From Candidatus Enterousia sp. (GTDB lineage Bacteria > Pseudomonadota > Alphaproteobacteria > Rs-D84): a DNA stretch of 64,000 bases. The position numbers and the translations under genes are program-made. The stretch is from NCBI GenBank assembly GCA_045593685.1, contig JAZNXD010000023.1, positions 1,715-65,714 of the forward strand, read 5' to 3'. How positions within the stretch are numbered: the first letter of the stretch is position 1; every line of letters starts with the position of its first letter. This document shows positions 4,896-49,674 of this stretch, one piece after another. The notes beneath the pieces are model-generated. The model made no database searches. It was given only the letters and a program-made list of their open reading frames with translations, and was not told where the DNA came from.

Positions 4896-5978
4896 TTGTC
4901 AATATATAATTGTACAGTAGTAAAGGTGTATATATTGTCAAAGTTTTGTGTTTTTTGTGGAAATCCACCAACCGATAAAAATATGGAACACGTTGTTCCA
5001 CAATGGTTGATTAAAATGACGGGTGATGAAAAACGTCTTTGTAATTTAAAGACCATCCTGCCGCGTGATATACCATTTATTCAATTTAAATTCCCCGCGT
5101 GCGAGGCTTGTAATTCCAAGTATTCTGATATGGAGGGCTCGGTCAAGAACATTATTGTTAAAATCCTGGACGGCCAATCTGTAAACGCATCCGAAATAAA
5201 CCTTCTGATGGATTGGATGGACAAGGTTCGCATAGGCCTGTGGCTGGGGGCGTTATATCTGAAAAAACAGGTTGACCAAATATCGCCACACATGCACATA
5301 GAATCCCGCATGGGGCTAAAAGATCGCATACTGATTATAGAACGACAAAATCACCGGGACAAACGCCTTTCGTTTGCGGGACCTGCCCAGCAAACATTTA
5401 TGCACAATCCGTGCGCGTTTCAAATGATAATAAATAATTATATCTTTACAAATGTTTCGGAATACGGATTGGTGTCACGACGTCTGGGGTTTCCATATTG
5501 TGACCGGGTCAAGTTTCTTGACATAGATAACGCCCAGTTTAACACATACAAACGTGCCCCGGGTCGTGTTATCAATCCTGTGGTTCGTGGGCTTAATGGC
5601 GCACCTGACAAAACTATAATCTATCAATCTTGTTCCCCCGCCCAGGCGAACATGTTCCCAGATTTATACAAAAGTGATTATGTCACGGCGCACAGTCTGG
5701 ATGCGGCCACTGGTCTTGGCGGGATTTTTTATCAGAAAAATGCCAACGGTGCACTTTATTTGCCACCCACGGCCCGGGTAAATCTGACACCAAAATTTAC
5801 CACCAAAACCAACGGTCAAATTGTTTCGCAGGTATTTGAATTGCAAAACTATGTTATCGATAATACATATACCCTAAAATTTGCATCCCCCGACGTTGCC
5901 GCCGCCCAGCAAAAAATGAATCAACAATTAATGGCGTTAAATAATATGTATATTCGCGCCTGTCAGAACAAGAAATAG
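4896..5978 (+). CDS. HNH-type (CxxC...EH..P...CxxCN) nuclease-domain protein with large uncharacterised C-terminal domain
   Basis: N-terminal CVFCGNPPTDKNMEHVVPQWL...FPACEACNSKY matches the zinc-ribbon/beta-beta-alpha-Me arrangement of HNH endonucleases (HNH_5-like). The remaining ~270 aa are unrecognised. The true start may be an internal TTG near 4935. Confidence 0.45.
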   Translation: MSIYNCTVVKVYILSKFCVFCGNPPTDKNMEHVVPQWLIKMTGDEKRLCNLKTILPRDIPFIQFKFPACEACNSKYSDMEGSVKNIIVKILDGQSVNASEINLLMDWMDKVRIGLWLGALYLKKQVDQISPHMHIESRMGLKDRILIIERQNHRDKRLSFAGPAQQTFMHNPCAFQMIINNYIFTNVSEYGLVSRRLGFPYCDRVKFLDIDNAQFNTYKRAPGRVINPVVRGLNGAPDKTIIYQSCSPAQANMFPDLYKSDYVTAHSLDAATGLGGIFYQKNANGALYLPPTARVNLTPKFTTKTNGQIVSQVFELQNYVIDNTYTLKFASPDVAAAQQKMNQQLMALNNMYIRACQNKK

Positions 5979-26854: not shown

Positions 26855-28033
26855 TTATTTGTTTTTATTTGTGTTCATGACGCATTCTTTGTATTCGTCC
26901 GGACTGGTTTTTGTCCAGCATTGATCATTAACGGATTGTGTGTCACCATAACTGGCTTTTGTTTTTCCGCGCCCATACATTAAATCTAACTTGGTCAGTC
27001 CGATTGCCTTGGCGCAATAATTGTTTGTTGCATTGTTTTTATTGAATATATATCCGGTGTCGCACTTTACGCACGTCCCATCAATCGGATGCGGTCCACC
27101 ACGATTGTTGGTGGCGCAATCAATACATGTGTGGTCGGTTACGCTGGCAAAGGTTTGTCCGGCGTTTTTGCATTTGTATTTGTAACAGTTGTCGACCATT
27201 TCCAATGCGTGCATATCATCGCGATATCCCGATATGCTCCATCCATTGCACATATTGGTCGATGCCTGCGCCATGGAACATGTCGATGCATTAATGGGCT
27301 CGCAATCTGTATTGCTGATATTTGGTTGATAACCATTTTTACAAACCAATATTCGCGAGCTAGCATTTGCAGGATATACTTGCAGGTCTTTACCCATGGC
27401 GCTAAATTCCATCTGGCGTGCCCATGCCCCATTCCCACTGGGCAGAAATTTATCAATCGCCAATAAAATATCGTGTTCTACATTACCTACATTTTTTTCT
27501 GCGTTCGGGGCATAACATTTTCTACGTTTTGATGTTTGAAAATATGAAAAAGTATATTCGATATTTGACCAGTTTTCATTAGGTTTGATGTTATTGTAAT
27601 TTTCGCGCAGAAATGGTGTTATGTCGCATGTTCCGGCGTAATCTGAAACCTTGGTCAGACATTTGTCGCCCGTATATCCTGCGCGACACAGCCATATACA
27701 TGTATTATTCCCCAACGGTTCCGCAAAGAGCGAAGAATTGTCGTCGTTCCCCATAAACTGGGTTGGGCAAAAATACGCCCCATATTGATTAACCTGCCTG
27801 GCCAACATAAACAAATACGCATAGCCGTCGCTGATTTCTAATTTTGCCTTGTACGCATTACAGTCTGCGGCAATTAATTCTTTGCCGATGCAGCCCTGGG
27901 TGTTTGTTTCGTTGCAAAGAATCCAATTTAACTTACCGCCCCATGCATTTTGTATGTCGGTTGACAATATCGTGTGCGCAAATGCCGATGTTGACAGTAA
28001 TGCATACGAAAACAAGAATACTAATCGTTTCAT
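26855..28033 (-). CDS. secreted cysteine-rich protein with C-x-x-G-Y-type (EGF/furin-repeat-like) motifs
   Basis: Start set at the ATG at 28033 (GGGGGAAATTC upstream) giving signal peptide MKRLVFLFSYALLSTSAFA. Motifs CIWLCRAGYTGDKC, VCKNGYQPNISNTDC, CVKCDTGYIFNKNNATNNYC. More than 30 Cys. Confidence 0.55.
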   Translation of the reverse strand: MKRLVFLFSYALLSTSAFAHTILSTDIQNAWGGKLNWILCNETNTQGCIGKELIAADCNAYKAKLEISDGYAYLFMLARQVNQYGAYFCPTQFMGNDDNSSLFAEPLGNNTCIWLCRAGYTGDKCLTKVSDYAGTCDITPFLRENYNNIKPNENWSNIEYTFSYFQTSKRRKCYAPNAEKNVGNVEHDILLAIDKFLPSGNGAWARQMEFSAMGKDLQVYPANASSRILVCKNGYQPNISNTDCEPINASTCSMAQASTNMCNGWSISGYRDDMHALEMVDNCYKYKCKNAGQTFASVTDHTCIDCATNNRGGPHPIDGTCVKCDTGYIFNKNNATNNYCAKAIGLTKLDLMYGRGKTKASYGDTQSVNDQCWTKTSPDEYKECVMNTNKNK

Positions 28034-28049
28034 GAATTTCCCCCTGTGT

Positions 28050-28326
28050 AAAAAAAGACCGCCAGGGATTATTGACGGTCGGGGTGCTAGAAAAATCATA
28101 TCAAAGAATGACCCCGTTGGTCTTTGGGGCATATGCCCCTGTTGTATAACCAACGGCACCCCGACATTTAAACGGGGAAACATAACAAAAGGCGCATCCG
28201 CGCCATTTTTATGCGGATATCAGTGTACGTATCATACACCGCTTTGATAAAGGCTTTTCTAAGGCCCCGAACCCACATCCCTGTGGATTCATAAAAATTT
28301 TAACAAATAATCAAACCCAATGTCAA
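28050..28326 (-). promoter_or_regulatory. promoter plus ~240-nt structured leader with two intrinsic terminators (leader family copy C)
   Basis: On the minus strand: TTGACA (28321-28326), 18-nt spacer, TAAAAT (28297-28302); 5' hairpin CCACA/TGTGG; internal terminator GGCGCGGATGCGCC+T-run (28191-28204); complementary segments CCCCG / GTCGGGGTGC / GCACCCCGAC; terminal hairpin GACCG..CGGTC + T7 (28050-28080) immediately before the RBS. Confidence 0.45.
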
Positions 28327-28366
28327 TCAATTAGATAAATAAAAGTTTAGTAAATAATTTATCACA

Positions 28367-28674
28367 TTTGTCATCCCGTGGCTTGACCCCGGAACCCAGG
28401 TTGTATCTTCCTTTTGTCATCCCGTGGCTTGACCCCGGAACCCAGGTTGTACCTTCCTTTTGTCATCCCGTGGCTTGACCCCGGAACCCAGGTTGTATCT
28501 TCCCTTTGTCATCCCGTGGCTTGACCACGGAACCCAGGTTGTATCTTCCTTTTGTCATCCCGTGGCTTGACCCCGGCTCCCAGGTTGTATCTTCCCTTTG
28601 TCATCCCGTGGCTTGACCACGGGACCCAGGTTATACATCAACTTTGTCATTCCCGCGCAGGCGGGAACAGGGTC
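28367..28674. repeat. tandem array of six 46-bp repeats plus one variant unit
   Basis: The unit TTTGTCATCCCGTGGCTTGACC(C/A)CGG(A/G)ACCCAGGTTGTATCTTCC(T/C) starts at 28367, 28413, 28459, 28505, 28551 and 28597 (exact 46-bp period). A seventh unit at 28643 is the variant TTTGTCATTCCCGCGCAGGCGGGAACAGGGTC. Units contain the palindrome CCCGTGG..CCACGGG. Confidence 0.9.
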
Positions 28675-28797
28675 AAAAAAGTTAACAAACAGATGGATAA
28701 AAGTTTGGTTGTTTTTTTTACAATTTTTATTCACAAAACATAAAATGATTTTGTAAATTATTTACCAAACTAAGCTTTCATTTGTTGTGACAACAAA

Positions 28798-35369: not shown

Positions 35370-35446
35370 AAACTCACCTTGTTTGCGCGTATAACATCGG
35401 GCCATAGGCGACTACGAAGTGCTGCGAAGCGACTAGGAAGCGCAAC

Positions 35447-35478
35447 GCGACACCACGGTCAAGCGTCGGAATGACAAG
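35447..35478 (-). repeat. dispersed palindromic element (same family as the 28367 array, inverted)
   Basis: The reverse complement reads CTTGTCATTCCGACGCTTGACCGTGGTGTCGC (compare TTGTCATCCCGTGGCTTGACCACGG). Confidence 0.6.
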
Positions 35479-35576
35479 TTTGTTTAATTTAAAACAAATT
35501 TTAAATTTACGGACTGACAGAATTTTTTGCAAAAATTCTGTGGGGCGTTCAACTAAACTTTTATTCATTTTTCTAA

Positions 35577-35828
35577 TTGACATTTTGGTTGTGCGTTTAC
35601 TACAATACCCATGTCATGGCGGGTTGCCATGATGGGGTGTGAAGACCCGTTTATTGGCGTCAGAATAAGAACCTGTGGCGCATGCGTGCGCTGTTTTTTT
35701 ATTCTGATGATATTCTCCTGATCAATCCCACTTGGTCAGGAGGGCTTGTGAATATATTGAATAAGCAGCACAATTCCAATAAATTGTCTTCAACCTCCTG
35801 ACCACCTGAATAATTCGGTGGTTTTTTG
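35577..35828 (+). promoter_or_regulatory. promoter plus ~215-nt structured leader ending in an intrinsic terminator (leader family copy A)
   Basis: TTGACA (35577-82), 18-nt spacer, TACAAT (35601-06). Hairpin CATGGC/GCCATG. Conserved block GATGGGGTGTGAAGACCCGTTTATTGGCGTC. Internal GCGCA/TGCGC hairpin+T-run (35678-35700). CTCCTGA / GGTCAGGAGG / CCTCCTGACC triple. 17-nt loop GTGAATATATTGAATAA (35748-64). Terminator CCACC..GGTGG+T6 (35802-27). Confidence 0.55.
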
Positions 35829-35856
35829 TTTGTTATAACGGGGGAAATGTACGGGT

Positions 35857-42375: not shown

Positions 42376-42582
42376 TTGAAAATCATACACGATTTTTTTA
42401 TCATGACAACGTCGCAATGGTGTTTATTGCGATGGGGCGTCGAAACCCGTTATAAGGCATCGATTCAGATGAAAAAAAACTCCAACCCCGGGTTGGAGGG
42501 CGGTGAATATATTGAATAAACCCGCTATTCCTTATAATAGTTTCGAACCTCCAACCGCTTTGACCAACAATGCGGTTTTTTT
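42376..42582 (+). promoter_or_regulatory. promoter plus ~175-nt structured leader ending in an intrinsic terminator (leader family copy B)
   Basis: TTGAAA (42376-81), 17-nt spacer, TATCAT (42399-404). Hairpin CGCAAT/ATTGCG. Block GATGGGGCGTCGAAACCCGTTATAAGGCATC (42431-61). CTCCAACC / GGTTGGAGG / CCTCCAACC triple. Identical 17-nt loop GTGAATATATTGAATAA (42503-19). Terminator ACCGC..GCGGT+T7 (42554-82). Confidence 0.55.
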
Positions 42583-42600
42583 GAAAGAAAGGGGGAAATT

Positions 42601-49085: not shown

Positions 49086-49155
49086 TATACCAATCTTTAT
49101 AAATTGGCCGGTAATAAATGCCGGCCTGATTTTTACTAATTAAAAAAGGGACAAA

Positions 49156-49674
49156 ATGCTTACGAAAATAGACCTTTGTACCATGGCGTTATTAAAACTG
49201 GGCGAAGCGCCAATTCAATCTTTGTCTGATGATGTTGCATCTGCGAAATTATCGCGTACTTTATTTGACCCTGTTATGGATGCGTTAATCAGTATTCATC
49301 CATGGCGTTTTGCAACGGCCGAAATAAAATTGACCAAGAACACAGACGGCAATTTTTTGATACCGTCCAATGTGTTGCGTGTGCTAAGGGCATCTGGGCG
49401 TATTATTGGCGACCGCGTAATTTCTGATGCGCAAACCGTCACGATTACGGCGACTGTGCGTACGGAACCGGACAAGTATCCTTCGTATTTTATTTCGTTG
49501 GCGGCCACCCGCCTGGCTATGGAGTTTTGTATCCCGCTGTTGGGCGACCAGTCTGTATTTCGTATGTTGGTCGCGTTGTATGAAACAGAATTACAAACGG
49601 CCAAATTTATTGACAGCACGACATCCATATCCGGCGCCATAGAAGATTTTTCATTAATTAATTCGCGTTATTAA
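49156..49674 (+). CDS. phage head-tail adaptor / tail tubular protein A-like
   Basis: MLTKIDLCTMALLKLGEAPIQSLSDD...HPWRFA matches the N-terminal pattern (N.AL..LG...I.S......W.FA) I associate with podovirus adaptor/tubular-A proteins. Confidence 0.4.
   Translation: MLTKIDLCTMALLKLGEAPIQSLSDDVASAKLSRTLFDPVMDALISIHPWRFATAEIKLTKNTDGNFLIPSNVLRVLRASGRIIGDRVISDAQTVTITATVRTEPDKYPSYFISLAATRLAMEFCIPLLGDQSVFRMLVALYETELQTAKFIDSTTSISGAIEDFSLINSRY

Follow-up and report, generated by a model that had tools for sequence, protein, structure and literature searches.

The question raised by this locus is what happens to transcription in a leader that carries a full predicted intrinsic terminator 17 nucleotides (nt) before the start codon of its own gene. 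The locus lies in a 64,000-nt stretch of Candidatus Enterousia sp. contig JAZNXD010000023.1, which is called the window below; the gene in question (gene C, 26855-28033, minus strand) encodes a secreted cysteine-rich protein, and the window holds two further leaders of the same kind, copy A (~35577-35856, plus strand) and copy B (~42380-42600, plus strand). Based on the comparative and folding evidence presented here, we have shown that two alternative folds of this leader are under selection. Copy C is thus very probably a selected two-state RNA, and on balance we favor the view that it switches transcription of the gene that follows. The best reading is a three-layer system of terminator, antiterminator (helix X:D) and anti-antiterminator (helices U:X and P1), with termination as the default. 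The family appears to be undescribed so far, as a form of terminator-based attenuation built around a fold resembling that of the small RNA (sRNA) sRNA-Xcc1.

Two alternative folds of one leader

Reading of the region 27400-28700 located every element that a preliminary description of this DNA had listed for copy C, from the promoter and the 5' hairpin to the U, X and D segments, the nested hairpin, two terminators and the ATG, each on the minus strand and where that description had placed it. The sigma-70-type promoter TTGACA-18-TAAAAT (28326-28297) agrees with the consensus at 11 of 12 positions, with a TG preceding the -10, and ranks second among the promoter-like sites in the 20 kb scanned; its spacing to the 5' hairpin is kept in four related loci (L001, L002, L004 and L005). 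Transcription of copy C would start at about 28290. Since a second promoter-like site matching at 9 or more of 12 positions is missing from the minus strand between this promoter and the ATG at 28033, expression of the gene should need read-through of the leader.

The RNA begins with hairpin H0 (28286-28273, CCACA-GGGA-UGUGG), whose GNRA-type tetraloop GGGA is invariant in the eight C-type members described below. The 5' block GGGGCCUUAGAAAAGCCUUUAUCAAAGC (28268-28241) follows; it contains a G-run together with the small local hairpin Hb (28252-28268, GGC(CUUAGAAAA)GCC), the loop of which (28255-28262) also provides the 5' side of the long-range helix P1b, and then the 5' strand of a second such helix, P1c (AUCAAAG, 28242-28248). 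Sequence and folding place in the variable H1 region (28179-28241) a hairpin GGUGUA..UACACU and an internal hairpin GGCGCGGAUGCGCC (28204-28191) followed by UUUUGUUAU, flanked by an A-run on its 5' side and a U-run on its 3' side. The U segment UCCCCGU (28178-28172, core CCCCG) pairs with the GGGG core of the X segment GUCGGGGUGC (28165-28156, that is GUCGGGGUG at 28165-28157 plus the C at 28156), and X can pair instead with D. Between X and D lie the nested hairpin H3 (28156-28114, CCGUUGG/CCAACGG, with internal loops UUAUACAACA and AAAGA and the inner hairpin GGGGCAUAUGCCCC), the hairpin h2 (28095-28112, GUCAU(U CUUUGAU)AUGAU), whose loop at 28100-28106 is the 3' strand of P1c, and the 3' strand of P1b (UUUUCUAG, 28087-28094), which serves as a junction strand when X and D are paired. 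The D segment GCACCCCGAC (28087-28078, that is CACCCCGAC at 28086-28078 plus the G at 28087) forms a perfect 10-bp helix with X in copy C, and its CCCC is also the alternative partner of the 5' G-run (P1a). Its last three nucleotides, GAC, are at the same time the first part of the terminal terminator GACCGUCA-N8-UGGCGGUC (28080-28050), an 8-bp stem (28080-28057) followed by U7. The Shine-Dalgarno sequence GGGGGAAA (GGGGGAA, 28040-28046) begins about 4 nt past the U-run.

Folding of the 257-nt copy C leader gave -102.9 kcal/mol, against -74.2 +/- 5.0 kcal/mol in 200 shuffled sequences, none of which was as stable (z = -5.7; -5.6 for copy A and -4.4 for copy B). The minimum-energy fold is the same in the three copies and is dominated by a long-range helix in which the 5' block meets a partner ~150 nt downstream, between H3 and D, directly ahead of the terminator. 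In copy C this helix consists of P1a (GGGG:CCCC), P1b (UUAGAAAA:UUUUCUAG) and P1c (AUCAAAG:CUUUGAU), and it encloses the H1 hairpins, the U:X hairpin and H3. The preliminary description had recognized the 5' block as a loose GGGG..GAA..UUAU alignment with copies A and B; the block itself is confirmed, and what had been overlooked is that it provides the long-range strands of P1b and P1c.

We refer to this fold as state I (H0, P1a/b/c, H1, U:X, H3 and the full terminator) and to the alternative as state II (H0, Hb, H1, a three-way junction of X:D with H3 and h2, and a truncated terminator). The two are mutually exclusive at four points: X pairs with either U or D, the G-run with either the 3' strand of Hb or D, the loop of h2 is almost entirely consumed by P1c, and D shares its last 3-4 nt with the terminator. 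Blocking of the final 4 nt of D reduces the terminator hairpin of copy C from -12.8 to -5.0 kcal/mol, and in the eleven members compared below the hairpins weaken from values of -8.7 to -15.6 to values of -0.8 to -7.8 kcal/mol; state II, which removes 3-4 nt of the terminator arm, costs the terminator 6-10 kcal/mol. The mutually exclusive terminator and antiterminator that characterize a riboswitch-style expression platform are therefore present in silico. In copy C, forcing state II also lets the 5' GGGG pair with the freed U segment.

The evidence that both folds are maintained comes from eleven members: copies A, B and C, and the leaders of loci L001, L002, L004, L005, L103, L210, L211 and L212. 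They were split into 28 segments, each checked against its source DNA, and all helices are ungapped runs. For the helices special to state I, all alignment cells are paired in P1b (80/80, six pairs changed on both sides) and in P1c (74/74, with all seven pairs changed on both sides and nine distinct helix sequences). The helices of state II behave likewise: X:D is paired in 95 of 98 cells (five pairs changed on both sides), h2 in 53 of 54 (four pairs), and Hb occurs as GGC/GCC, GGAC/GUCC, GGGC/GCCC and GGG/CCC. H0 (55/55, all five pairs changed on both sides) and H3 (68/68, six pairs) are common to the two states. Every helix has 97-100% of its cells paired. In a comparison of registers, 98-100% of cells pair in register; sliding the 3' strand by 1-3 nt leaves 24-69% (31-69% for the 3' strand of P1b, which is 100% paired in register, and 47-56% for P1c), and importing the 3' strand from another member leaves 45-76%. 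The U:X helix has a 4-pair core in all eleven members and a fifth pair in ten, with alternations CG/UA and AU/CG/UA, and extends to 8-11 bp in the A/B type. In L211, X and D have changed together (GUCGGGAAG/CUUCCCGAC), so that GGGGUG/CACCCC has become GGGAAG/CUUCCC.

The three-way junction was also scored on the alignment produced by a covariance model: 93.8% of the cells are paired (97.5% for X:D) and 14 of 24 pairs have changed on both sides, while sliding gives 38-46%. Among 500 shuffles, none reached the observed value on four of five measures and two did so on the fifth. The exchange between U, X and D and the overlap of D with the terminator, the three-segment logic already proposed in the preliminary description, are kept in all eleven members despite their sequence differences. 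Invariant unpaired nucleotides are also found in the GGGA loop, UUC, GAUAUCCG, UAUACAACA and GGUCAU/AUGAU; the GNRA-type loop and these junction and loop nucleotides suggest that the RNA adopts a compact tertiary structure able to bind a ligand or a protein. P1b might even persist in state II as an H-type pseudoknot between the loop of Hb and the junction strand.

Subtypes, relatives and the sRNA-Xcc1 fold

A covariance model built from C-type junctions alone (R1) recovered copy A with 27.9 bits (E 0.0016), copy B with 19.9 bits (E 0.11) and L212 with 16 bits (E 0.85). These three are its best matches outside the training set in 198 kb, each full-length and at the expected coordinates. A joint model (R2), run over the window with filters off, found exactly three copies, C at 91.8, A at 52 and B at 42.8 bits, the next match scoring 15.7 bits. 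Loci L210 and L211, from two other metagenome-assembled genomes (MAGs), bridge the types: their leaders precede orthologs of protein A and have C-type X and D segments, and L210 combines C-type helices with the loop UAUAUAUUGAA typical of A and B, through which the H3 loop of copy C can be linked to the AAUAUAUUGAA motif that A and B carry. A further homolog of protein A, at L212, has an A/B-type leader. Because of the cross matches and these bridging members, copies A, B and C are subtypes of one family, as the preliminary description had proposed.

The same evidence bears on the idea that copy C resembles A and B by chance alone, or that the leader is a repeat or a mobile-element remnant with no RNA function. 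In its favor, tandem repeats like repetitive extragenic palindromes (REP) lie directly upstream of copy C, and X and D share little sequence with their counterparts in A and B; yet the covariance-model matches, the bridging members and the covariation of all helices stand against it, as do the fixed orientation to the downstream gene, the lack of terminal inverted repeats and the presence of only three copies in 64 kb, and we regard this idea as hardly credible.

The subtypes have in common the order of elements (H0, Hb, P1b, P1c, H1, U:X, H3, h2, D and the terminator T) and, after each leader, a Shine-Dalgarno sequence and a gene for a secreted cysteine-rich protein. They differ in X and D, which are of the CCUCC type in A and B and of the CCCC type in C; in H3, a simple hairpin with a GAAUAUAUUGAAUAA loop in A and B that carries an extra inner hairpin in C; and in H1, which has two hairpins in C and, in B, lacks the internal terminator-like hairpin. 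The 17-nt loop motif GUGAAUAUAUUGAAUAA is absent from copy C, as had been stated, and is partly present as UAUAUAUUGAA in the otherwise C-type L210, so that it marks a subtype and not the family. The conclusion once drawn from its absence, that C is the more divergent copy, does not hold; the C-type is the commonest among the members recovered, in a sampling biased towards it. The internal terminator-like hairpin had been treated as part of the architecture. It is present in copies A and C and in L001, L002, L004 and L005, weak in L210 and L211 and absent from copy B, L212 and L103; moreover, in C and A the U-run finds a partner in the A-run upstream, which makes the element at the same time just a long hairpin. 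It is an optional feature outside the definition of the family. What remains of the original interpretation is therefore the family and the U/X/D logic; the second terminator is given up as part of the architecture, and the long-range helix and the junction fold discussed below had been missed.

Within copy C (28186-28220 region), AUCCGC at 28215-28210 is complementary to GCGGAU at 28201-28196. The latter segment covers parts of the loop and 5' arm in the internal hairpin, so that this hairpin has a possible competitor of its own; similar pairings are seen in L005 and L002, the pattern not being clear across all members.

Leaders homologous to copy C were found before homologs of protein C with 85, 60, 49 and 42% identity (L001, L002/L003, L004 and L005/L006, respectively), at the same distance to the start codon as in copy C. 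The gene neighborhoods of L002-L006 are unlike that of the window, L001 being the exception, and conservation is higher in the leader than in the protein. Runs of DNA that match were obtained from gut, wildlife and sheep metagenomes. In several metagenome contigs (runs X7 and X19) the match is confined to the 64-nt core formed by X and H3 (28105-28168), beyond which they diverge, and a metatranscriptome contig matches only D and the terminator of copy B (42537-42583), with three differences; such partial matches show that there are further paralogous copies in those communities. A metagenome scan with the pattern CGGGGTG..GGTCAT..ACCCCGAC returned 120 stretches, almost all of them chance matches in G+C-rich genomes, and among these only L103 is real; a genome scan with the 5' block of the A/B type (GGGGYGTNGAARACCCGTT) yielded no relative among its 79 matches, all due to chance. 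At 49105-49156, a hairpin GGCCGGTAATAAATGCCGGCC that has a U-rich tail, 30 nt before a 172-aa open reading frame (ORF), gave a weak partial match to the model (11.8 bits, E 1.8) and is probably unrelated to the family.

Among the 4227 families of Rfam, only three transfer RNAs in the window reached the gathering score. With relaxed thresholds, however, one family stood out: RF02221, sRNA-Xcc1, matched copy C with 34.9 bits, copy B with 37.0, L005 with 40.9 and L103 with 49.0 bits, below its gathering score of 53, while copy A had no match with E < 10. The alignments span model positions 1-87 and place all three helices. sRNA-Xcc1 is an 88-nt sRNA of Xanthomonas campestris (PMC2996969). It is multi-copy in Xylella islands (PMC12189769) and lies upstream of symE, in the same orientation, in Xanthomonas integron cassettes (bioRxiv 10.1101/2025.06.18.660453); its homologs occur in integron cassettes, Xylella genomic islands and prophage regions. 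BLASTN searches with its consensus against E. coli genomes and against plasmids gave no match.

The likeness extends to a three-way junction closed by a 9-bp G+C-rich outer helix (X:D in the leader family), a first inner hairpin with an AUACAA-type internal loop, and a second, small hairpin whose loop is of the CUUUG type and which leads into a UUU..AG junction strand. Both RNAs also occur in several copies per genome (PMC12189769 for sRNA-Xcc1) and upstream of a gene in the same orientation (in Xanthomonas cassettes for sRNA-Xcc1; bioRxiv 10.1101/2025.06.18.660453). However, sRNA-Xcc1 is a stand-alone RNA of ~88 nt, whereas the junction forms only the 3' third of a ~250-nt RNA in the leader family, which adds a 5' domain, a long-range competing helix, the U segment and a separate terminator. 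The former is found in mobile elements of Xanthomonadaceae, has symE downstream and is described as a trans-acting sRNA; the latter belongs to an uncultured gut alphaproteobacterium and precedes genes for secreted cysteine-rich proteins in a parC/lpxI neighborhood. We take the junction of the leader as a distant relative of sRNA-Xcc1, or as a case of strong convergence, and not as a member of that family.

One could go further and propose that the sRNA-Xcc1 fold, instead of being primarily a trans-acting sRNA, serves as sensor and antiterminator in a widespread cis switch, a new riboswitch-like class, of which the ~88-nt sRNAs of Xanthomonas and Xylella would be terminated or processed leaders. 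We put this forward as a tentative idea that is more probably wrong than right by a wide measure. If it were true, the leader family, in which the 5' competitor domain is intact and the terminator explicit, would be the first version whose mechanism can be read from its sequence, and it would imply ligand- or protein-sensing control of surface and secreted proteins in gut Alphaproteobacteria and of toxin-like genes in mobile elements. The family in any case links a testable cis-regulatory model to the fold of sRNA-Xcc1, an RNA tied to virulence regulators, and it constitutes a structured RNA family below every Rfam gathering score with unusually clear comparative support for two alternative folds. 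In the literature, no paper was found that combines Alphaproteobacteria, RF32 and riboswitch, and the core sequences of the leader are absent from the first 200 of the 408 supplement files of PMC8040213, a survey of human-microbiome RNAs.

A proposed switch in cis and its alternatives

In the mechanism that we propose, an RNA starting at about 28290 would adopt one of the two folds. In state I, the default and OFF state, the 5' block would reach across ~150 nt to pair with the stretch immediately 5' of D, U would hold X in a local hairpin, and the terminator GACCGUCA/UGGCGGUC+U7, being complete, would stop transcription 17 nt before the ATG. In state II, the ON state, the 5' G-run would close Hb, and X would leave U for D and close the three-way junction around H3 and h2; the terminator would thus lose the first 3-4 nt of its 5' arm and RNA polymerase would read into the gene. 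A small ligand, an RNA-binding protein, temperature or the kinetics of transcription may shift the balance to state II. If a ligand or protein partner is found, it would define a new sensor class.

The antiterminator of riboswitch expression platforms, T-box leaders and PyrR- and trp-type attenuators extends with its 3' strand into the 5' arm of an intrinsic terminator. The leader shares with these classical attenuators the mutually exclusive helices, with D, the 3' strand of the antiterminator, lying over the 5' arm of the terminator, an upstream segment (U and the long-range P1) that sequesters the antiterminator, and a position directly before the Shine-Dalgarno sequence. It differs from them in the absence of a conserved leader peptide or of an ANTAR- or T-box-like signature, and in an exchange between four partners, since the G-run chooses between Hb and D and X between U and D. 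Attenuation by a leader peptide was considered and rejected, the only ORF of the leader beginning at or before the presumed start site and being broken by a UAG in L005.

A role in cis is favored by the immediate succession, within a few nucleotides, of terminator and Shine-Dalgarno sequence, by the lack, noted above, of a further promoter-like site ahead of the ATG, and by the retention of the D/terminator overlap in eleven members of differing sequence. Functional termination, and gene expression set by the fold, would follow from this arrangement. A hairpin with a U-run is kept at the terminal position in all eleven members. In addition, a gut metatranscriptome contains a 169-nt contig identical to 28053-28221, with a depth of 2.3, which ends inside the terminal U-run (at 28053), whereas the depth over the coding sequence of gene C is zero. 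This contig fits an abundant terminated leader, though it is no proof of one, and it runs through the internal hairpin. The same metatranscriptome has nothing for copy A and, for copy B, only the partial match to a paralogous copy mentioned above.

That the contig is restricted to the leader would also suit a different role, namely that of a mainly stand-alone sRNA gene of ~240 nt, a longer relative of sRNA-Xcc1 acting in trans, with the downstream gene expressed by leaky read-through. Locus L103 fits this well: it is a complete copy of ~230 nt on a metagenome contig (6036-6299), with a promoter-like site and a terminator of its own and no ORF after the terminator, and it scores highest of all against the Rfam model of sRNA-Xcc1, itself an 88-nt RNA on Northern blots (PMC2996969). 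The next gene at L103, an accD/accA fusion, converges on the leader. Against a purely trans-acting RNA, a secreted-protein gene follows the terminator so closely in ten of the eleven members that there is no room for a separate promoter; the X:D alternative overlaps the terminator in every member, an overlap that a pure sRNA would not need; and the X/D, P1b and P1c sequences differ between copies, so that no seed for a common target is shared. We therefore judge this role, as the main one, unlikely, while noting that a trans-acting sRNA and a cis switch do not exclude each other.

The energies, for their part, can be set against switching as such. In constrained folding, state I is the minimum-energy fold in all eleven members (within 0.6 kcal/mol for copy A), and state II lies 10-19 kcal/mol above it in the nested model, so that the switch may rarely flip unless a strong stabilizer or a kinetic trap intervenes. 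The real gap may be smaller, because nested folding cannot score the P1b pseudoknot. Such values would be natural for a constitutive structured 5' untranslated region, be it a stabilizer of the messenger RNA, a processing site or an insulator, in which X:D is a by-product of two C-rich segments, U and D; long structured leaders can indeed stabilize messenger RNAs, and neither a ligand nor a regulator is known here. However, X:D is 9-11 bp long, where state I by itself would require no more than 4-5 nt, and has its own compensatory changes, as in L211; Hb and h2 exist in state II only and covary nevertheless; and a full intrinsic terminator just before the Shine-Dalgarno sequence would be self-defeating in a leader that does not switch. 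A constitutive leader thus appears quite improbable, less so than coincidence but more so than a trans-acting sRNA.

Several further points weigh against a cis switch and temper our preference for it. The more distant homologs of gene C are second genes in operons and have no leader (the loci of P0014, P0032, P0035 and P0015); L103 has a leader and no gene; and L209, which encodes an ortholog of protein B (47% identity), has lost its leader. The leader can thus be dispensed with, and it may in addition have a role as a free RNA. The RNA evidence consists of the one contig just described, of low depth, possibly derived from contaminating DNA and short of the predicted start. The eleven-member alignment was segmented by hand with pairing as a guide, a bias that ungapped contiguous helices limit and do not remove, and it contains only about 7-8 independent sequences. 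Finally, termination and switching are predictions from sequence and folding. At L209, the same position after priA (5743-5834) holds a 90-nt intergenic region only, in which the promoter-like TTGTTG..TACCAT and a remnant ATGAATATATT are kept.

Downstream genes and upstream repeats

Protein C, of 392 aa, begins with a Sec-type signal peptide (MKRLVFLFSYALLSTSAFA) and contains 22 cysteines, and its neighbors in the window are the housekeeping genes parC and lpxI. Its 36 homologs all come from MAGs of uncultured Alphaproteobacteria and from gut-type metagenomes, to which the protein family seems restricted, and 13 of their 29 invariant columns are cysteines. Proteins A, B and C had no match in Pfam. 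An AlphaFold2 (AF2) model of protein C has a predicted local distance difference test (pLDDT) score of 87.6 and is mostly beta, and it found no similar fold in the PDB (best E 0.07). A BLASTP search of protein C against the ORFs of the window revealed no paralogs, so that A, B and C represent three unrelated protein families, and the leader has thus moved between unrelated genes for secreted proteins. These proteins have neither a domain nor a fold match, and the leader offers a first handle on the regulation of the secreted and surface repertoire of uncultured gut Alphaproteobacteria.

In the members followed by a gene, the terminator is 17-36 nt from the start codon, L212 being the exception with ~6 nt. 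There, an ATG at 1378, ~6 nt past the U-run of the terminator, opens a reading frame beginning with MQKINIFLLTILIPCSAYA, a signal peptide, whereas the database start is 1467; the gene probably starts at 1378 and the called start looks wrong. With no separate Shine-Dalgarno sequence at L212, the 3' arm of the terminator may at the same time serve for ribosome binding.

Directly upstream of the -35 of copy C lies a box, ACTAAACTTTTATTTATC (28334-28351, minus strand), that occurs three times in the window against 0.08 expected; the other copies are at 35552-35569 (plus strand, before copy A) and 28692-28709 (minus strand, diverged). It is also found in L001 (2683-2700), L210 (9715-9732) and L211 (9694-9711, and 9338-9355 on the minus strand), and stands just upstream of the -35 in leaders A and C and their relatives, but not in B. 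The box may be a regulator site, an UP-like element or the edge of an insertion. Its second copy, diverged in the window and inverted in L211, flanks a cluster of REP-like repeats. In the window this cluster (28367-28632, and also 28640-28680) is a tandem array in which a 46-nt unit is repeated 5.8 times with 94% matching; on the minus strand a hairpin (CCGUGGUCAAGCCACGG) precedes GAUGACAAA in each unit, and a related single unit, TTCCCGCCTGCGCGGGAATGACAAAG, adjoins the array. Only about two units are present at the same place in L001, and similar units of a hairpin and (A/G)ATGACAA occur upstream of copy A (35440-35475) and in L211 (9370-9660). All these units look like REP-like elements with a variable copy number.

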